From the NCBI GenBank assembly GCA_001795615.1, contig MGKI01000002.1, positions 2,760 through 66,759 of the forward strand: DNA of 64,000 nucleotides. Reading direction: 5' to 3'. The notes below the pieces were generated by a model. That model was not told where the DNA came from, made no database searches, and saw only the letters and a list, made by a program, of their open reading frames with translations. The translations under genes were made by a program, and so were the position numbers. How positions within the stretch are numbered: the first letter of the stretch is position 1; every line of letters starts with the position of its first letter. This stretch comes from Candidatus Yanofskybacteria bacterium RIFCSPLOWO2_01_FULL_42_49 (GTDB lineage: Bacteria; Patescibacteriota; Minisyncoccia; 2-02-FULL-40-12; GWA2-44-9). Positions 49,413 through 62,351 of this stretch are shown piece after piece.

Positions 49413-50153
49413 TTAAATTTCTGGCCAATCAATAAGGCCTAAATTCTTAAACATTACGATTAAATTATTCCTCTCTCTGGCAACCGCACTCATGTTAACT
49501 CGTAAAAATTCGTCCCTAACATTATAATGATATCCTAAACCGCCCAGCTTTCTAAAAGCCTCCGCGTTGGGCAGGTGATCGTCCACTAGCAGACAATTTT
49601 CCGCTTTTAGCCCAAGAATCTCCATGGGTCGAATAAAAATTTCCGGGTCGTCGGGCTTTCTCATGTGCATTTCATAAGAAATCGCCTCAAAGTCAAATCC
49701 ACACATTACTTCTGGATATCTTTGCCTCATTGTTTCCACATGAACCGGATTATTATTTGTAACCAGAACTAACTTTACGCCCTGCTCCTTCAGTTTTATT
49801 TTCAGCTCAAGTATAACCGGATCGGGAATCATTACTTCGTTACCGGTAAATACATCGATAAATTCCGCAAAAGACATGTCGAGTTCAAGGATGCGCTGCA
49901 CTCTATCAAAGAATTCTCTGCTATTTATATCGCCAAGCTCAAAATCAACAAAAGCACTTCTATATTTGCCGACCAAAATTTCATGGACTGGAATTTTGCT
50001 TCTTTTTCTCTTTTCAAGATCACGGTAGAATATCGAGGTATTATAGAGCAAAAGCACATTGCCGCAATCAAAGAACACAGCTTCTACCATTTTCAACCTA
50101 CAATTACAAAGAACTATGCCCAACATAGTGCCAGAACTTACGGAAATGCGCAA
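49413..50153 (-). CDS. HAD-superfamily hydrolase; start may be at the internal MVEAVFFDCGNV
   Basis: Motif I FFDCGNVL; Rossmann-like pattern. Confidence 0.55.
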   Translation of the reverse strand: MRISVSSGTMLGIVLCNCRLKMVEAVFFDCGNVLLLYNTSIFYRDLEKRKRSKIPVHEILVGKYRSAFVDFELGDINSREFFDRVQRILELDMSFAEFIDVFTGNEVMIPDPVILELKIKLKEQGVKLVLVTNNNPVHVETMRQRYPEVMCGFDFEAISYEMHMRKPDDPEIFIRPMEILGLKAENCLLVDDHLPNAEAFRKLGGLGYHYNVRDEFLRVNMSAVARERNNLIVMFKNLGLIDWPEI

Positions 50154-50394
50154 TGCGCGCGTACGAAGAGGTTTATAACCTTAAACTACCGGCGCTCCTT
50201 CCCAAATTTTTGTTCTTTGCTCTTTTTCCTTTTTTCTAAATCTCCGTACGCTGTTTCGACGGCTTTATTGGCGCGTTTCCATTCTTCGCTGTCTTTTCCA
50301 TAAACATCTTCGGCAATACTCATTGCAGAACCTTCGTTGGCGGCGCTTTGCGCCGCCAACGAAAAAGTCGGTCAATTTTCTGAAAGTCAGATTT

Positions 50395-50505
50395 TGGTGG
50401 GTGCGGTAGGAATCGGACCTACGACCTTCCACTTATCAGACGGATGCTCTACCAAGCCGACGTTACAGTCGGCTCCCCGACCGAAGCGTCGGGGCTGAAC
50501 TACGT
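50395..50505 (-). pseudogene. 3' two-thirds of a tRNA-Ile(GAT)-like gene (D-arm with a 39-nt twin-hairpin insertion, anticodon arm, T-arm, acceptor 3' strand, CCA) lacking its 5' acceptor strand
   Basis: rc sequence gtagttcag[cccc...gtcggc]ttggtagagcatccgtctgataagtggaaggtcgtaggtccgattcctaccgcacccacca. The matching 5' acceptor gggtacg lies about 430 bp away at 50936-50942. Confidence 0.5.
50443..50505. repeat. 63-bp direct repeat, copy 1, flanking the GIY-YIG/tRNA-Ile cassette
   Basis: Identical to 50872-50934 except for one mismatch. Confidence 0.8.
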
Positions 50506-50512
50506 TATTTTG

Positions 50513-50584
50513 TGGGCGTGCTAGGAATCGGACCTAGGACCTCCTTTTTATCAGAAAGGCGTTCTACCACTGAACTACACGCCC
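50513..50584 (-). tRNA. tRNA-Ile (anticodon GAT); CCA not encoded; T-loop TCCGATT
   Basis: Hand fold: acceptor GGGCGTG/CACGCCC, D-stem GTTC/GAAC, anticodon stem CCTTT/AAAGG with loop CT-GAT-AA, T-arm CTAGG-TCCGATT-CCTAG. Confidence 0.75.
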
Positions 50585-50598
50585 ACAAAATAACCTAA

Positions 50599-50862
50599 TT
50601 ATGGTTTTATTTTTATAAAACCATCTCTGACTATTTTTTCAATAAAATCTCTCCGCTTAAGTTTTTTAAGTTTTAATTCAACCTCTCTCGCTTCTTTTAT
50701 GTTCATATATTCTTGAATTAAAACTGGCTCAGGATTTATCATCCTTTTAGTCGTATAAGTCCCCCCGTATTTATGGTGAGCTAACCTTCTTATTATGTTA
50801 TTGGTACTGCCAATATAATACTTGTGACCATTGTCTTTCAAAAAATACACATATCCTTTCAT
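50599..50862 (-). CDS. Small stand-alone GIY-YIG nuclease, YhbQ/UPF0213-like
   Basis: GYVYFLKDNGHKYYIGSTNNIIRRLAHH (GIY...YIG...R); 87 aa. Confidence 0.8.
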   Translation of the reverse strand: MKGYVYFLKDNGHKYYIGSTNNIIRRLAHHKYGGTYTTKRMINPEPVLIQEYMNIKEAREVELKLKKLKRRDFIEKIVRDGFIKIKP

Positions 50863-50871
50863 GGTGTTATT

Positions 50872-50934
50872 GATGCTCTACCAAGCCGACGTTACAGTCG
50901 GCTCCCCGACCGAAGCATCGGGGCTGAACTACGT
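50872..50934. repeat. 63-bp direct repeat, copy 2, immediately upstream of the GIY-YIG start; it carries the 5' acceptor and D-arm half of the disrupted tRNA.
   Basis: See copy 1. Confidence 0.8.
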
Positions 50935-50991
50935 ACCCGCAAATTTCCTCTTATTTTACTAAATAAAAAGGGGCCCGGCAACCCCTATAAA

Positions 50992-53064
50992 TTAAATCTT
51001 ACCACCGCTTGAATAAGCTTCTTTAAAAATTAACAACTGTTGAATTTCGTTGGTACCTTCAAAAATAAGATTAATACGAGAATCTCGCCACATTCTTGAA
51101 ATTTCAGATTCATCCGAAAATCCGTCCCCTCCAAGTATCTGAAGTGCCGTATCAACATTCCACATATTCATTTCTGAACACCTAAGCTTCACGCAAGCTG
51201 CCTCAAGACGAACATCTTTGCCTTCATCAGCCGTCTTGGCCGCACTATACACCGCCTGTTCCATCATATAGATATTGGCTCTTATTCTTGCAAGATAAGA
51301 TTGGATCATCTGGAAACTCAAAAGTGGACTGTCAAATTGCTGACGATCCGAGGCATGTTTGAAAGCAATTTCAAACGCTCTCTTAGACGACCCGACACAA
51401 CCGGCAGCAAGACCCAGCCTTCCACCATTTAAAGTCTGCATAAACATTCTAAATGCTTTACCGACTTCTCCGAGAAGATTTTCGTCGGGAACAAAGACAT
51501 CTTCAAGCGCCAATTCGACAGTACGAGATCCCTTAATTCCAAGCTTATGTTCAACTCTAGATACCTTATAGCCTTTGGTTTTTGTCTCGACAATGAATGC
51601 CGCCAGACCGTCTTTTTTGAGCATCGGATCAGTTTGGGCAATAACAATCGTAAAATCCGCATCGGCTCCGTTGGTAATGAATCTCTTGGAACCATTAAGC
51701 ACCCAGCCACCATTTTTTTTGATAGCTGATGTTTTGATATTTCCGGCATCTGAGCCAGCACTTGGTTCAGTCAACGCAAATGCTCCCATCATTTTACCTT
51801 CTAAGGCCTGCGTAAGGTATTTCTTTTTTTGTGTTTCGTTGCCACCCAGATAAATGGCTCCGCAGGCAAGACCCATATGAGCACCGGCTACAACAGCCGA
51901 AGAACCGTGAACACGAGACAACTCTTCAAAAACTATGCAGTAAGCAGTTTTGCCAAGACCGGCCCCTCCATATTCCTCAGGATATGAGGCGGCAAAAAAC
52001 CCCATTTCACCCATTTGATTAAATAGTTCGCGGGGCATCCCGCCAGCTTCTTCCATCTCCTTGATCCGCGGACGAATTTCCTTGTCGGCAAATTCCCGAA
52101 CCATCTCACGAAACATTTTTAGATCTTCTTCGTGTTCAGATTTGTCAGTTTTAACCGATGGGGTTGCTTGTTTCTTCGGCTCAAGGTCAATTTTCAGGAA
52201 CTTTGCCAATCCACGCCTGGCAGAGTCCTTTACTACCAATTCTGCAAACAATTTCTGCTCCAGTTTCAATGCATCCGCCAATGGAAGTACCATTCCATTC
52301 CTGACCGCAGAGAGAATCGCCTCTACCGCTTCGCTAGATTTTGATTGCATCAGCATTTTGAATTGATCAGATGCAATAAGCCCGTTAAACCTTTCTGGGT
52401 CGAAAGTTTGCAGTCTTTTTGACGGATAACCGCCTGCAACTAGTTGTTGAGCGAGATTTTTTGCCTCATTATCTATATCTATTTTGAAGACAACTTTATC
52501 TACAAGGCCGTATTTCATTGCATCATGCGCTGAAATAATCACGCCCGACAAGAGAAGCTTGAGGGCCATCTCAATATCCATCAGCCGAGGCAAACGCTGG
52601 GTACCACCCATGCCAGGAATAATGCCCAGACCTATTTCCGGTTGGCCAAATTTGGCCTCATCTACCGCTATGCGGACAGTGCAGGCCATTGCCAGTTCGT
52701 TTCCTCCACCCAAGCAATAACCGTTGATAAGGGCAACGGACGGTTTGCCGAGATTTTGAACCGCATCCACAACAGCATTTACCTTTTCGAGAAGCTCGAA
52801 GGCTTTCTGAAAATTACCTTCTTTGGCAATCGTCCAAATCTCTTTAACATCAGCACCAGCTGAAAAGAGTCCCTTGCCTTCAATAATAAGCGCTTTAGTC
52901 CTTTCGTCTTCCTTGACCTTTTCGAGAAGAGTAGCGAGGGACATAAGGACTTCTCCGGAAAGTTGATTCATCGGAGGATTTTGAATAGTGAGTTTGGCGA
53001 TATTCGTATCCTTAATTCTTGAAAGCTTAACCTTCGGTTCTTCCTGTTTTTCAGCCACTTTCAA
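50992..53064 (-). CDS. Fusion protein: enoyl-CoA hydratase (crotonase) N-domain plus acyl-CoA dehydrogenase C-domain
   Basis: Crotonase motif (ALIIEGKGLFSAGADVKE) and ACAD motifs (FALTEPSAGSD ... E...G.NEIQ). Confidence 0.75.
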   Translation of the reverse strand: MKVAEKQEEPKVKLSRIKDTNIAKLTIQNPPMNQLSGEVLMSLATLLEKVKEDERTKALIIEGKGLFSAGADVKEIWTIAKEGNFQKAFELLEKVNAVVDAVQNLGKPSVALINGYCLGGGNELAMACTVRIAVDEAKFGQPEIGLGIIPGMGGTQRLPRLMDIEMALKLLLSGVIISAHDAMKYGLVDKVVFKIDIDNEAKNLAQQLVAGGYPSKRLQTFDPERFNGLIASDQFKMLMQSKSSEAVEAILSAVRNGMVLPLADALKLEQKLFAELVVKDSARRGLAKFLKIDLEPKKQATPSVKTDKSEHEEDLKMFREMVREFADKEIRPRIKEMEEAGGMPRELFNQMGEMGFFAASYPEEYGGAGLGKTAYCIVFEELSRVHGSSAVVAGAHMGLACGAIYLGGNETQKKKYLTQALEGKMMGAFALTEPSAGSDAGNIKTSAIKKNGGWVLNGSKRFITNGADADFTIVIAQTDPMLKKDGLAAFIVETKTKGYKVSRVEHKLGIKGSRTVELALEDVFVPDENLLGEVGKAFRMFMQTLNGGRLGLAAGCVGSSKRAFEIAFKHASDRQQFDSPLLSFQMIQSYLARIRANIYMMEQAVYSAAKTADEGKDVRLEAACVKLRCSEMNMWNVDTALQILGGDGFSDESEISRMWRDSRINLIFEGTNEIQQLLIFKEAYSSGGKI

Positions 53065-53166
53065 ACTCCAAATAAGTTATCAAGAATCTGACGTTAATAT
53101 AACTCCTTTTTTATAAAAAACAAGCCCCTCACCTTTTCAAAAGGTGAGGGGTTAAATACTTAAAAA

Positions 53167-54387
53167 TTACCATTCTTCTTCAATCTTTTTAAATATCTTC
53201 TTGTCTTCCGCGACAAGATCTTCAAGCAGTTTCGCCGGCTTGAACCGCATTCCGCATTCCCGCTCAAATCGCTGAAGATCGGCAAGAAGATTTGCAAAAC
53301 CATATTTTTCTTGAGCATAGTGTAGAGGCCCTTCCAACGCCATGGGAAACATTATGCCAAGAGTAGCACCGGTTTCAATGTCATCTGCCGTAGCAACTCC
53401 TTCTTCAAGACACAATAATGATTCGACGCAAAGACCGGCCGTCATACGTTTAAAACCTTCTTCAATATCATATTCTTGCCGATTTGGATATTCACGGTCA
53501 ATAATCGCCTGGGTATCTTCGAAACCAGTGGCATTAGAACTAACATAGAAACCAGCCCCGACTTTGTTACCAATCCGACCAAGTTCAATCATACGATTCA
53601 TAAATGGCGCCGGCTTCGCCCTTTCCCCGTATCCTTGATGTAAAATCTTTGCCACGTTAGCAGCAATATCTATGCCCACATAGTCAAGAAGGGTAAACAA
53701 GCCCATTGGCCATCCAAATTTCTCAGCTCGAGCGTCAATTTGCTTAATTGTAAGTTTTGTTTCGGTAAGAAGCCGTACCGCTTCATTTGCATATGGCATC
53801 AAAATACGATTGACCAGATATCCGGGACAACCCTTTACGGGAAGCGGGGTTTTTCCAAGAACGATTTGAACGAAACGATTTACTATTGTAAATGTTTCAT
53901 CCGAAGTCTTATCGCCTTTTACCAATTCCACTAGCGGTGCTTTAACCGGCGGATTAAAAAAGTGAGTGCCGATAAATCTGTCCGGGCGATTGGTTACCGA
54001 TGCTATCTCGGTAACAGAAAGCGATGAACTATTTGTCGTAAAAATAACATCATCAGACAATAACGAATTCAGTTCCCCAAAAACAGCCTTTTTTACGGCC
54101 ATGTCTTCAAAGACCGCCTCAATTACAAGATCGGCATTTTTGATATCGTTGTACGAACTTGTGACTAAGAAGCGTGCCTTTGTACCTTCGGCTTCTGCTA
54201 AAGTTATTTTTCCAAGCCGAACCACTTTGTCAAGCTGGCTGAAAATTCTTTCTTTACATGCTTGAGCGCGTTCATTGTTGGCTTCTTTCACAACAATACT
54301 TACGCCCTTTTGGGCAATATGCTGTCCGATACCGCTTCCCATCGTTCCGCCGCCGATAATTCCAACTGTCCTAATAATTCTGGCCAT
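53167..54387 (-). CDS. 3-hydroxyacyl-CoA dehydrogenase
   Basis: NAD-binding VGIIGGGTMGSGI, 3HCDH pattern. Confidence 0.85.
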   Translation of the reverse strand: MARIIRTVGIIGGGTMGSGIGQHIAQKGVSIVVKEANNERAQACKERIFSQLDKVVRLGKITLAEAEGTKARFLVTSSYNDIKNADLVIEAVFEDMAVKKAVFGELNSLLSDDVIFTTNSSSLSVTEIASVTNRPDRFIGTHFFNPPVKAPLVELVKGDKTSDETFTIVNRFVQIVLGKTPLPVKGCPGYLVNRILMPYANEAVRLLTETKLTIKQIDARAEKFGWPMGLFTLLDYVGIDIAANVAKILHQGYGERAKPAPFMNRMIELGRIGNKVGAGFYVSSNATGFEDTQAIIDREYPNRQEYDIEEGFKRMTAGLCVESLLCLEEGVATADDIETGATLGIMFPMALEGPLHYAQEKYGFANLLADLQRFERECGMRFKPAKLLEDLVAEDKKIFKKIEEEW

Positions 54388-54496
54388 TGTTTTCTCCAGA
54401 AAAATATTTCAAAAAACTGTCCAAAATATAGTCCCTTAAACAATTACAGTCAATAGCTTAATTTGTAAATAAAAAGGGCTCTCGCCCCATACTAAC

Positions 54497-55810
54497 TCAA
54501 ACTCTTTCTATGATCAGGCATCCGCCCTGGCCACCGCCCACGCACATAGTAATTGCGGCATAGCGTTTCTGATATTCCAATAATTCGTGCATAGCCTGAA
54601 CTGTTAGCTTTGCACCAGTTGCCCCAACAGCATGGCCAAGAGCAATAGCTCCACCATGGACATTCAACTTCTCGTCAGGAATATGAAGTCCTCTCTGACA
54701 AGCAATCGCTTGAGACGCAAAGGCCTCATTGAGTTCAAATAAATCAATGTCTTCAATCTTCAGCCCGGCTTTAGCGAGTGCCTTAGGAACAGCAAAGATA
54801 GGTCCTTCGCCCATCAGTGCCGGATCGCAACCGGCATATGCATAGGACACTATATATGCCAACGGAGTAAGTCCCAATGAAACAGCTTTTTCTTCGGTCA
54901 TGATCAAGAGTGCCGCCGCGCCATCATTCATTGGACAGGCATTAGTCGGAGTTACTGTACCGCCGAGATGGTACGTTTTCTCAATAACGAACGTGCCGGT
55001 TTTGTCGATATAGAAATTTACATCATTTTCAATCGGATTCATAATATTCTCATTCATGAATATGGCAGGCGCACCAGATGCGGATCCAGGACTTTTGGCT
55101 AGTTTCTCGCTTGGACTTTCGTCTTGTGAAAATACAACCTGACCTCCCGGAATAATCTTATCATCTGATTCAACACCCCCTCGGATACGCATTCTGTCTT
55201 GAATTTTTAACGGAAGGATTTGCGCATCAAATTTTTGATTCTCTCGAGCATCACACGCCTTTTGGTGAGAACGCACCGCATATTCATCCTGCTCTTCGCG
55301 GGTAATTCCCCATTTTTGGGCAACATTTTCAGCTGTCCGTCCCATCATTTGTTTAATGTTGGGATCAAAAAGTCCATCCCACAAGGCGTCTGTAAGAATA
55401 TGGTTTTGCATCCTAAGTCCGAACCTCGCATCTTTCATAACATATGGCACTTGCGACATATTTTCGGTTCCACCGACAAGAAATATTTCCCCGTCCCTAG
55501 CCGCAGCGGCCTGGCACGCCGAAGTGATCGCCTCAATTCCTGACGCACAATTTCGTGCAACTGTCCGCGCCGGAACACCTTGGGGAACCTTTGCATAAAG
55601 AGCCGCAACGCGGGCAATATTGGCTTTGGGCTGGCATATATTACCAGCCACAACTTCATCAATTTGGGCCGGATCAATGCCGCTCTTTTTTACCACATGA
55701 CGAAAACAATATGCCAAAAGAAACTCTGCGGGAACATTTTTCAAAGCACCGCCAAATTTGCCGATAGCAGTCCTGATTCCGCCTACAATAACCATTCTTT
55801 TTGTCGTCAC
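54497..55810 (-). CDS. Acetyl-CoA C-acetyltransferase (thiolase)
   Basis: Thiolase signatures (ARNCASGIEAI, NVHGGAIALGHAVGATG, CVGGGQG). Confidence 0.9.
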   Translation of the reverse strand: MTTKRMVIVGGIRTAIGKFGGALKNVPAEFLLAYCFRHVVKKSGIDPAQIDEVVAGNICQPKANIARVAALYAKVPQGVPARTVARNCASGIEAITSACQAAAARDGEIFLVGGTENMSQVPYVMKDARFGLRMQNHILTDALWDGLFDPNIKQMMGRTAENVAQKWGITREEQDEYAVRSHQKACDARENQKFDAQILPLKIQDRMRIRGGVESDDKIIPGGQVVFSQDESPSEKLAKSPGSASGAPAIFMNENIMNPIENDVNFYIDKTGTFVIEKTYHLGGTVTPTNACPMNDGAAALLIMTEEKAVSLGLTPLAYIVSYAYAGCDPALMGEGPIFAVPKALAKAGLKIEDIDLFELNEAFASQAIACQRGLHIPDEKLNVHGGAIALGHAVGATGAKLTVQAMHELLEYQKRYAAITMCVGGGQGGCLIIERV

Positions 55811-61092: not shown

Positions 61093-61107
61093 GTTCTGAT
61101 TCTATCT

Positions 61108-61183
61108 TACCTCCCAATGTTCTAAGTTCAGTTAAAAATTTCTGCGCCTCTTCTGGCTTTGGCGGAATTCCGTGCCCCCACAC
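61108..61183 (-). pseudogene. Displaced remnant copy of the transketolase N-subunit 3' end (last ~30 codons plus stop), downstream of GIY-YIG gene 2
   Basis: Minus-strand translation WGHGIPPKPEEAQKFLTELRTLGGKIESEHE* against the TK-N C-terminus WHGISPTKEQGKEFLDELRTLGGKIASEHQ*. Confidence 0.55.
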
Positions 61184-61435
61184 TTATAAACTACGCTTAA
61201 GTCGCTTTTTAAGCTGAAATAAAGCATTGGATCTTAGTTTTAAATTATGTTCTCTTGTTCTAGCGTCTTTTTCGTTATTGTAAGCTTCATAATAGATAAG
61301 TTCAAAAGGCTTTCTGTTTTTTGTGCTTACAACTTTCCCGTCATTATGCTCTGCCAATCTTCGTCTCAAGTCAGCGGTCGATCCCATGTATAATTTGGAA
61401 TCTTTTGAACTTCTTAATATGTAAACATAAAACAT
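61184..61435 (-). CDS. Small stand-alone GIY-YIG nuclease, paralog of 50599-50862; start at the internal MFYVYIL
   Basis: FYVYILRSSKDSKLYMGSTADLRRRLAEHN; flanked by the inverted repeats cgtgcccccacac / gtgtgggggcgtg. Confidence 0.75.
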   Translation of the reverse strand: MFYVYILRSSKDSKLYMGSTADLRRRLAEHNDGKVVSTKNRKPFELIYYEAYNNEKDARTREHNLKLRSNALFQLKKRLKRSL

Positions 61436-61454
61436 AAGTGTGGGGGCGTGCCAA

Positions 61455-62351
61455 TTATTGATGCTCGCTGGCAATTTTACCACCCAATGTCCGGAGTTCG
61501 TCAAGAAACTCTTTGCCCTGCTCTTTTGTTGGTGATATCCCATGCCAGCGAGCATCAAACTCCATTTCTTTTATACCCTTCCCCGGTATCGTATGTGCAA
61601 TTATGACTGTCGGCTTTTCATATACTGCCTTGGCCTCTTCAACGACATCGACAAATTGCTCTATATTGTGCCCGTCAACCTCCAAAACGTTCCAGCCGAA
61701 TGATTCGTATTTCGCCCTCAACGGCTCAAGAGGCATAATGTTCTCCGTCATACCGTCTATCTGTATATTATTGCGATCAATTACTGCCGTTAGATTGCTT
61801 AACTTGTTTTTCCCGGCAAACATTGCCGACTCCCAAGTCGCTCCTGACTCTTGTTCACCGTCGGACATAAAGCAATAAACTCGAAACTTTCCTCGCCCTT
61901 CCGAAGCTTTACGCGAAGGAGGGTTGCTATCCATCCTTGCCGCATAAGCATATCCTGCGGCTTGACCCAACCCCGAGCCCAGCGGTCCCGATGTTGTTTC
62001 AACTCCCGGCAGTCGTTCCCGTTCAGGATGACCTTGCAACCGTGAACCGAATTTTCTCAAAGTTTTCAATTCTTCGATCGGAAAATAGCCGGACATTGCC
62101 ATCAACACATAGCGGATCGGACAAATGTGGCCATTTGACAAAATAAGTCGATCCCTTTCTTCCCACATTGGATTTTTAGGATCGTGATTGAGAACATGAA
62201 AATACATAGCCATAAAAATATCGGCCATCCCCAACGGCCCTGCCGTGTGCCCCGACCCCGCTTCCGTAAGCATCTCAATTAAAAACTGGCGGGCCTCGTT
62301 GGCCTTTAGTTCTAACTCCTTAATCTTGTTTTCATGGATATACTGCGACAT
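61455..62351 (-). CDS. Transketolase, N-terminal (thiamine-diphosphate-binding) subunit
   Basis: GHTAGPLGMADIFMAMY, GDG..MEG-type motifs (SDGEQESGATWESAMFAG). Confidence 0.9.
   Translation of the reverse strand: MSQYIHENKIKELELKANEARQFLIEMLTEAGSGHTAGPLGMADIFMAMYFHVLNHDPKNPMWEERDRLILSNGHICPIRYVLMAMSGYFPIEELKTLRKFGSRLQGHPERERLPGVETTSGPLGSGLGQAAGYAYAARMDSNPPSRKASEGRGKFRVYCFMSDGEQESGATWESAMFAGKNKLSNLTAVIDRNNIQIDGMTENIMPLEPLRAKYESFGWNVLEVDGHNIEQFVDVVEEAKAVYEKPTVIIAHTIPGKGIKEMEFDARWHGISPTKEQGKEFLDELRTLGGKIASEHQ

Follow-up and report, generated by a model that had tools for sequence, protein, structure and literature searches.

The stretch of DNA considered here, referred to as the window, comprises 64,000 nucleotides of contig MGKI01000002.1 (assembly GCA_001795615.1) from Candidatus Yanofskybacteria bacterium RIFCSPLOWO2_01_FULL_42_49, a member of the Patescibacteria. 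The EF-G of this bacterium is 85-88% identical to its named matches. At one of the tRNA-Ile loci of the window, the two ends of a resident tRNA-Ile gene enclose a gene for a small GIY-YIG nuclease, an intact second tRNA-Ile gene and two copies of a twin hairpin. While giving an account of this arrangement, the present analysis compares it with homologous loci in metagenome assemblies and genomes (labelled with L-numbers) and weighs hypotheses on how it arose. All features at the tRNA-Ile locus are read on the minus strand.

The locus opens with the 5' fragment of the resident tRNA-Ile (positions 1-15, GGGTACGTAGTTCAG; 50924-50938), which was recognized by comparison with the tRNA-Ile of L002 and L003 and whose 5' acceptor strand, GGGTACG, lies at 50932-50938. 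It is followed by the upstream copy of the twin hairpin (CCCCGATgcttcgGTCGGGG and AGCCGACtgtaacGTCGGCT; 50884-50923) and by tRNA positions 16-27 (50872-50883). Together, tRNA positions 5-15, the twin hairpin and positions 16-27 constitute copy 2 of a 63-nt direct repeat (50872-50934). After a nine-base spacer (50863-50871) comes the nuclease gene (50599-50862), the product of which is a single-domain protein of 87 amino acids (aa), UPF0213/YhbQ-like as judged by Pfam, PDB profile and AlphaFold/Foldseek comparisons. A 14-nt leader (TTAGGTTATTTTGT; 50585-50598) separates it from the intact, inner tRNA-Ile(GAT) (50513-50584), which has the acceptor GGGCGTG/CACGCCC and no encoded CCA, and which was called by ARAGORN and matched the Rfam tRNA family at 71.5 bits. 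The leader can pair with the trailer (inverted repeat I1, 23 nt, 91% complementary), of which 7 nt (50506-50512) precede copy 1 of the direct repeat (50443-50505). The downstream twin hairpin within that copy (50455-50494) has two perfect 7-bp stems, and the repeat forms the beginning of a 3' fossil of the resident tRNA-Ile (50395-50505), made up of positions 5-15, the twin hairpin, positions 16-73 and CCA, with no 5' acceptor strand. Leader and trailer (50585-50598 and 50498-50512; TTAGGTTATTTTGT and ACAAAATAACGTAG) extend the acceptor helix of the inner tRNA by about 12 bp, likewise in L002, a complementarity that could be a processing stem or a trace of cassette assembly.

Much of this had been proposed in an earlier, sequence-only reading of the stretch, and the direct repeats with their single base difference, the nuclease open reading frame (ORF), with a Pfam PF01541 match above cut-off, and the intact tRNA, by both ARAGORN and Rfam, all stood. 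Two details needed correction: that reading had placed the 5' acceptor strand at 50936-50942, an error of 4 nt, and had described the tRNA insertion as 39 nt of two perfect hairpins, a description that holds for the twin hairpin itself but not for its length, which is 40 nt, nor for the upstream copy, which has one G·T pair. The insert breaks the tRNA sequence precisely between positions 15 and 16 and is a pair of directly adjoining hairpins, both with stems of 7 bp and loops of 6 nt. A 39-nt string of it occurs twice in the 64-kb window, with 0 occurrences expected by chance, and both occurrences are at this locus.

That a tRNA-Ile gene lies split around the cargo was examined in silico. Deletion of the cargo, one repeat and the hairpin yielded a tRNA-Ile(GAT) call by ARAGORN with one A·C mismatch in the acceptor stem, and, as had been supposed, a single mismatch interrupts the pairing of the resident 5' fragment with CGCACCC, the 3' strand of the fossil; the same deletion with the hairpin retained yielded no call. 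The segment 50395-50505 is not a complete tRNA by itself, since ARAGORN made no call within it and Rfam returned only a partial match at 50406-50458 (model positions 9-63, 30.9 bits). An identical arrangement is present in two further assemblies, L139 (JGI 3300002105) and L140 (ENA ERZ27254836), and an assembly artefact is therefore ruled out, three independent assemblies being in agreement. An intron or ribozyme was likewise rejected; an Rfam search at E values up to 10 over 50000-51300 gave the tRNA and the partial tRNA only, and no intron family. No recombinase lies in or adjoining the element, the sole ORF between the repeats being that of the GIY-YIG protein and the neighbours encoding an acyl-CoA dehydrogenase (ACAD) and a HAD hydrolase.

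Comparison with relatives places these pieces in context. Upstream of the locus lies a gene for a fusion of ACAD and enoyl-CoA hydratase (ACAD-ECH; 50992-53064, identified by domain match), closed by a hairpin resembling an intrinsic terminator (50969-50986) that is conserved in L085, L003 and L141. Next, before the tRNA fragment, comes a promoter-like site, TTGCCG-17-TAAAAT (50953-50981), whose -10 box aligns with that before the plain tRNA-Ile of L085; the 5' fragment in the window and the plain tRNA in L085 stand at about the same distance from this box. This is presumably the promoter of the resident tRNA-Ile, from which the entire cassette would now be transcribed. Beyond the fossil, a perfect 14-bp inverted repeat (I2; 50333-50363) is probably the old tRNA terminator. 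Within the same surroundings (ACAD ... erpA ... tRNA-Ala), and next to ACAD genes whose products are 68-79% identical to that of the window, L085/L086, L148, L145 and L146 have a plain tRNA-Ile(GAT), with neither the nuclease gene nor the hairpins, and thus provide the empty sites for which a comparison of orthologous loci had been proposed. The site is filled in the window, L139, L140, L003/L004 and L141. Presence/absence polymorphism of this kind, at one locus among close relatives, is one of the features expected of a free-standing homing endonuclease gene.

The outer halves in the window agree with the working tRNA-Ile of L002/L003, the closest cassette-bearing relatives, at 14 of 15 positions in the 5' part and throughout the 3' 30 nt, whereas the inner tRNA shares only 12 of 15 positions with the 5' fragment and differs in its acceptor, anticodon and T stems. 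Because the outer halves match the L002/L003 tRNA-Ile while the inner tRNA differs, the sequence comparison indicates that the resident tRNA-Ile was split and that a foreign tRNA-Ile now does its job. The proposal of the sequence-only reading that a resident tRNA-Ile received, as a cassette, a GIY-YIG gene together with a replacement tRNA-Ile is thus supported by the empty sites, the promoter distance, the outer-half match and, as described below, a parallel case in L064.

Several further observations concern this locus and its tRNA. Among L085, L145, L146, L148 and the window, the acceptor stems of tRNA-Ile(GAT) diverge strongly (GGGCGTG, GGGTGCG, GCGGGCG, GGGCATG, GCGCGTG and GGGGCGA); the HAD-hydrolase gene lies on differing sides of the tRNA among relatives, or is absent; and in L145 an inverted tRNA-Ile 3' fragment (GTGGGTGCGGTAGGAATCG) stands directly past the ACAD terminator. 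The tRNA-Ile locus is a rearrangement hot spot. L001 (ENA ERZ27254754 k141_2875417, 1-1660) shares 1520 nt with the window at 100% identity, from the 3' end of the ACAD gene through the 5' tRNA fragment and the hairpin into the nuclease gene, and diverges 13 nt before the nuclease stop to give another ORF end and then a tRNA-Val(GAC). Either L001 is a true recombinant, or its nuclease gene is a second, nearly identical copy that lies at a tRNA-Val gene, or the contig is chimeric. A candidate eroded tRNA 5' fragment in L003/L141, GCGGGTTTGGTAAAAT, was rejected, alignment showing it to be the promoter -10 region. U, as pseudouridine 55, is near-universal at tRNA position 55, and the T-loop TCCGATT, which has C at that position, occurs in the tRNA-Ile(GAT) of the window (50513-50584 and 50395-50454), L002, L003 and L085; in the relatives L145, L146 and L148 the T-loop is the usual TTCGAT.

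The architecture recurs across the Patescibacteria. A profile search gathered relatives of the protein in 568 clusters (50% identity, E <= 1e-10), and the named homologue matches were nearly all from Patescibacteria, with some from Omnitrophica. A census was then drawn from species-representative genomes, which do not include the window's own species and in which the best match to its GIY-YIG protein is 64% identical; it comprised 80 Patescibacteria loci encoding the 87-aa family, 75 of them assessable for a downstream tRNA and 79 for an upstream hairpin. A co-oriented tRNA starts no more than 30 nt past the nuclease stop in 59/75 loci and within 130 nt in 68/75, and the linked tRNAs belong to eight classes (Arg, Thr, Phe, His, Ile, Val, Asn and Lys). 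In 27 loci, tRNA positions 1-10 recur without change upstream of the ORF, the copy mostly reaching position 15, and the order there is tRNA 5' copy, hairpin, a few more tRNA bases (16 to ~25, or 11 onwards) and then ATG, the hairpin following either tRNA position 15 or position 10. A downstream repeat is missing from the commonest layout. In loci with examined gene calls no further conserved neighbour gene was noticed, in the course of an inspection that was not a systematic test. An overlap of 10-11 nt between nuclease ORF and tRNA, with the conserved T8-A9-G10 of the tRNA as stop codon, occurs in L012, L035, L048, L050, L051, L053, L070, L080 and L083. Based on these results, the nuclease-hairpin-tRNA cassette of Patescibacteria is widespread and apparently undescribed; no description of an element combining a GIY-YIG gene, a twin hairpin and a tRNA was found in the searchable full-text literature, the coverage of which is incomplete.

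The twin hairpin is as regular a part of the cassette as the tRNA. The summary pattern CCGACG-loop-GTCGG-N4-CCGAC-loop-CGTCGG stands upstream of the ORF in 63 of the 79 loci, 52 by a strict and 11 by a relaxed definition, and the covariation counts that follow were taken over the 52. The consensus, NN-CCGAC-G...R-GTCGG-NN followed by NN-CCGAC-Y...C-GTCGG-NN, is dyad-symmetric and reads the same on both strands. No variation is seen in its 5-bp cores (CCGAC/GTCGG); at the two outer pairs of a stem, 47-50 of the 52 loci have Watson-Crick pairing, with 3-5 pair types at each, so that the change there has been compensatory. G·U makes up only 2% of the pairs, and loop length varies between 5 and 34 nt, some loops containing a nested CCGAC/GTCGG hairpin. 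A competing nested fold, given by RNA minimum-free-energy folding of the upstream copy, was discarded, being paired in only 19-25% of loci as against 94-96% Watson-Crick pairing, at the stem positions outside the cores, for the twin-hairpin fold. The scarcity of G·U pairs, together with a consensus that is the same on both strands, hints that the hairpin may act as folded DNA or on both strands. In none of 85 hairpin instances (0/85) does the hairpin sit in a tRNA that becomes callable once it is removed, which also told against an intron. The hairpin is a conserved module of the element that marks dead tRNA pieces only, and it is not peculiar to the resident tRNA of the window. With palindromic repeat elements mobilized in trans (REP/RAYT, IS200/IS605 ends, MITE-like) it shares a folded hairpin, conserved stems and multiple copies; the associated protein is not a HUH transposase (TnpA/RAYT) but the GIY-YIG protein. 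Agreement between hairpin register and nuclease clade, seen in 23 of 29 nearest neighbours, was not significant, since 184 of 2000 shuffles reached it.

Twin hairpins also occur without a nuclease gene. A list pooled with tRNA-distant copies comprises L011 409-449, L033 161-193, L006 2809-2856, L040 1336-1371, L060 1386-1539, L033 1816-1856 and L077 5614-5667; some of the hairpins listed lie away from any tRNA, and others form stubs of tRNA positions 1-10 or 1-15 plus hairpin directly upstream of an intact tRNA. L060 holds two nuclease-less units in tandem. Extra hairpins are nested within hairpin loops in L005, L008, L030, L066 and L141.

Fossils like that of the window are found in about a dozen loci, in each case directly past the intact tRNA, hairpin-bearing, and composed of positions 5, 8 or 11 to 15, the hairpin and positions 16-76; the tRNA segments retained beside the hairpin vary from 5 to 15 nt. 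L014 has two serial fossils that differ in their T arms and acceptor ends. In L064, the upstream GCGCGCT pairs with the fossil AGCGCGC around an inner tRNA-Val that has GGACGAT, a split-and-replace arrangement as in the window. In L025, L030 and L057, inner tRNA and fossil each contain stretches of the other, a mosaic structure that indicates crossovers within the tRNA; these mosaics and the divergent tRNA-Ile genes among near relatives are suggestive, though only suggestive, of co-conversion of flanking markers. L002 resembles the window in that two near-identical repeats flank its cargo, and in front of its upstream fragment stand the final 12 nt of a nuclease ORF and the leader, a sign that the inner tRNA was invaded anew. 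This remnant and the tandem units of L060 point to repeated invasion of a functional tRNA followed by deletion.

The protein itself matches Pfam PF01541 over residues 2-71 with 40.2 bits (cut-off 22.6, E 4.3e-10), and no NCBIfam model reaches its cut-off for the 87-aa sequence. Residues Y6, Y16, R26, H30 and E62 are invariant in 37 homologues and, by motif order, probably correspond to the catalytic residues of I-TevI. Its AlphaFold model (pLDDT, i.e. predicted local distance difference test, 90.9) has the GIY-YIG alpha/beta fold; Foldseek ranks 1zg2 first, followed by Slx1 and 1ywl, and the PDB profile ranks 1zg2 and 1ywl ahead of Slx1, the identity to the UPF0213 proteins 1zg2 (BH0048) and 1ywl (EF2693) being ~26-28%. 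Slx1 is a structure-specific nuclease of branched DNA. Protein identity stands at 58.4% within a linked-tRNA class and 52.8% between classes, a difference reached by 0 of 2000 permutations, and the nearest protein neighbour shares the tRNA class in 43 of 61 cases, both statistics being computed irrespective of host phylogeny. The tRNA classes broadly represent two D-arm types, GTTCAA-GGATAGAAC and GCTCAG-TTGGTAGAGC, and the link between nuclease and tRNA class fits recognition of the D-arm by a protein of this type.

Taken together, these data are best accounted for by a free-standing, homing-type nuclease cassette that is aimed at the tRNA D-arm and that restores or replaces the tRNA it breaks, an explanation to which we would give a probability of roughly 0.6 and in which the nuclease activity is predicted. 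The cassette would be a unit of ~0.4-0.55 kb, consisting of a truncated copy of the target tRNA that bears a conserved, G+C-rich twin hairpin in its D-arm, the 87-aa GIY-YIG gene and a complete tRNA abutting the stop of that gene. By analogy with T4 SegB, the nuclease would break an uninterrupted tRNA gene in or near the conserved D-arm, and the break would be repaired by copying of a cassette-bearing donor allele. Were the right-hand end of the break to pair with the complete tRNA of the donor, the product would be tRNA 1-15, the hairpin, tRNA 16-2x, the nuclease gene and an intact tRNA, which is the commonest layout. Were it instead to pair with the 16-2x stub by the hairpin, the resident 3' part would be left as a hairpin-bearing fossil, and the D-arm and hairpin segment would be duplicated, giving the 63-nt repeats of the window. 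The cassette would be transcribed from the resident tRNA promoter, and the hairpin might serve, for example, to disrupt the target in dead copies or as a protein-binding site. Since the cassette supplies a functional tRNA copy at the locus, the host may not easily lose it. Understood in this way, the element is of the homing-type nuclease kind, to which it adds a conserved structured module that is new and a strategy of tRNA replacement.

A number of points weigh against this explanation. Cleavage by the 87-aa protein, on which homing would depend, is a predicted activity, and the protein, a single domain with a short basic C-terminal helix, differs from SegB and I-TevI in having no separate DNA-binding domain; its association with tRNA class, moreover, leaves host phylogeny out of account. 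With its D-arm uninterrupted, the intact inner tRNA has no evident protection from the nuclease of its own cassette. As a simple target disruptor, the hairpin would need neither such strict sequence conservation nor dyad symmetry, and the hairpins that lie away from tRNAs or nested in loops hint at a mobility of their own. In L057 and L083, the upstream 5' fragment corresponds to the inner tRNA and not to the fossil, such that no single pathway trivially fits all loci. Finally, no true family member was found among IMG/VR viral contigs, leaving the cassette with no vector there; 24 hairpin-pattern matches in that database were dismissed as chance, lying in high-GC contigs with no tRNA or nuclease gene nearby.

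The main rival explanation, which we consider unlikely, takes the twin hairpin, extruded as a cruciform or single-stranded, to be the substrate of a structure-specific GIY-YIG nuclease. The element would then be a hairpin-guided, minimal transposon with non-autonomous derivatives, following a logic like that of REP/RAYT or IS200/IS605 ends, with D-arms as preferred landing sites and the tRNA duplications as by-products of repair. Invariant and covarying stems around loops of very uneven length suggest recognition of a folded hairpin and not of duplex DNA, and the symmetric consensus with few G·U pairs, the nested extra hairpins, the copies without a nuclease gene or away from tRNAs, the tandem nuclease-less units of L060 and the place of Slx1 as the nearest functionally characterized structural relative all favour such an element. 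However, the hairpins are overwhelmingly situated in tRNA D-arm fragments beside the nuclease gene and are not dispersed, the window holds no copy beyond the two at the locus, no target-site duplication of fixed length was seen, and GIY-YIG enzymes are hydrolytic nucleases with no known strand-transfer chemistry. A more far-reaching version, conceivable but unlikely, holds that the 87-aa protein and the twin hairpin form a self-contained, structure-guided mobile element of a new kind, which would recognize extruded hairpins and not a duplex sequence, invade the D-arm of essentially any tRNA gene and secure its retention by carrying the functional copy of that tRNA on which the cell relies ("addiction by replacement"). 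If that were true, the element would be a driver of the unusually fast turnover of tRNA gene sequences among closely related Patescibacteria.

Two other explanations are less likely, given the missing recombinase, the variable junctions, the empty sites and the varying partner tRNA. The near-identical 63-nt repeats around the cargo, in L002 as in the window, could be viewed as attL and attR, produced by Campbell-type integration of a circle of D-arm plus hairpin, nuclease gene and tRNA through host homologous or site-specific recombination; the hairpin copies of one locus do share much loop sequence (L032, L057, L083 and L014). This is nonetheless improbable, for no recombinase gene lies in or next to an element whose only ORF is the 87-aa nuclease, the commonest layout is without the downstream repeat, the tRNA segments by the hairpin range from 5 to 15 nt in length, unlike a fixed att core, and no circular junction was observed. 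We regard it as very improbable that the locus is an immobile housekeeping operon in which the GIY-YIG protein acts on the tRNA or its precursor, the leader hairpins are cis-regulatory RNA and the tRNA pieces result from local tandem duplication. Such an operon would be in keeping with the constant position of the hairpin in the transcribed 5' leader, with its covarying stems and with the tight coupling of nuclease ORF and tRNA, but not with the empty sites in close relatives, a partner tRNA that differs from genome to genome, the serial fossils and split resident tRNAs, 5' fragments that are exact copies of the adjacent tRNA and not a conserved leader, or a hairpin consensus that is the same on both strands.

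Among known systems, the homing-type cassette favoured here has partial counterparts. The UPF0213/YhbQ-like proteins 1zg2 and 1ywl resemble the 87-aa nuclease in size and fold and gave the best profile and structure matches; we know of no tRNA or hairpin linkage for proteins of that group, nor of a function of their own. In Allomyces mitochondria, an endonuclease ORF studied by Paquin et al. in 1994 and 2000 (the later paper being cited in PMC7218506) reportedly brought with it a replacement atp6 3' end, and G+C-rich double-hairpin elements (DHEs) are said to occur in the same genomes. The likeness resides in an endonuclease gene that supplies a substitute for the part it interrupts, the resident part remaining as a fossil, and in G+C-rich two-hairpin elements tied to mobility in an A+T-rich genome; the difference resides in a eukaryotic organelle, a protein-coding target and unrelated sequences, with DHEs that reportedly are dispersed and not a fixed module of a cassette. 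Genomic islands and prophages that target tRNA genes, to which the sequence-only reading had likened the cassette, likewise enter a tRNA gene, have direct repeats at their borders and reconstitute a functional tRNA. However, they use a tyrosine or serine integrase, enter at the tRNA 3' end and carry many genes, whereas the window cassette has no recombinase, a repeat that corresponds to tRNA positions 5-27 with the hairpin at 15/16, a junction accordingly in the D-arm, one 87-aa nuclease gene and a whole new tRNA; the likeness to integrase-driven islands thus fails.

The nearest functional analogue, by virtue of a GIY-YIG gene that lies among tRNA genes, is T4 SegB, a free-standing homing endonuclease of the GIY-YIG type, encoded in the T4 tRNA gene cluster, that recognizes, as part of its site, a conserved motif of the tRNA T-arm and that spreads its own gene and neighbouring tRNA genes into relatives lacking it (PMC2330249). 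SegB differs in being a larger protein of another GIY-YIG branch, encoded by a phage and acting in co-infection, and in having no twin hairpin, no split target tRNA and no fossil, whereas the cassette of the Patescibacteria, also known as the candidate phyla radiation (CPR), resides in cellular hosts and has as its presumed target the D-arm and not the T-arm. Additionally, CPR rRNA genes hold insertions that encode GIY-YIG proteins and, not being introns, bear no resemblance to those of group I or II (PMC11270868); the main text of that paper makes no mention of tRNA, hairpin or palindrome. These insertions are alike in phylum and in the placement of GIY-YIG genes within structural-RNA genes, and differ in residing in rRNA and not tRNA, the comparison here extending to location and not to the family membership of their proteins.

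If the proposed explanation is true, the cassette, at ~400 bp with one 87-aa nuclease and one 40-nt hairpin module, would be among the smallest autonomous mobile units, and it would provide a mechanism for fast tRNA gene replacement in reduced genomes. It would also account for the fragments of tRNA pseudogenes in CPR metagenome-assembled genomes, and perhaps for assembly breaks at the tRNA loci there; annotators would be warned that a tRNA beside such a gene may be a recent import. For the widespread UPF0213/YhbQ-like GIY-YIG proteins it would offer a first functional context, and at the same time a compact nuclease with a candidate defined nucleic-acid partner.

The window contains a second, divergent GIY-YIG ORF (83 aa, ~61184-61435, minus strand, within the region 61095-61460) that is 40% identical to the first over 64 aa. 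It stands directly past the stop of a gene for a transketolase N-terminal subunit (61455-62351) and is followed by a diverged second copy of the last ~27 codons of that gene (...HGIPPKPEEAQKFLTELRTLGGKIESEHE versus ...HGISPTKEQGKEFLDELRTLGGKIASEHQ); a 13-14 bp inverted repeat (GCCCCCACACTTAT and ATAAGTGTGGGGGC) brackets the ORF, and no CCGAC hairpins are present there. The arrangement appears to follow the same logic, in which an end is replaced and a fossil is left, applied to a protein-coding gene. Elsewhere, the window encodes an H+-pyrophosphatase and a class II ribonucleotide reductase. The ACAD-ECH fusion gene belongs to a beta-oxidation set at 50992-55810 that also includes 3-hydroxyacyl-CoA dehydrogenase and thiolase; to our knowledge, beta-oxidation metabolism is uncommon in Patescibacteria, and the set is common to other Yanofskybacteria.

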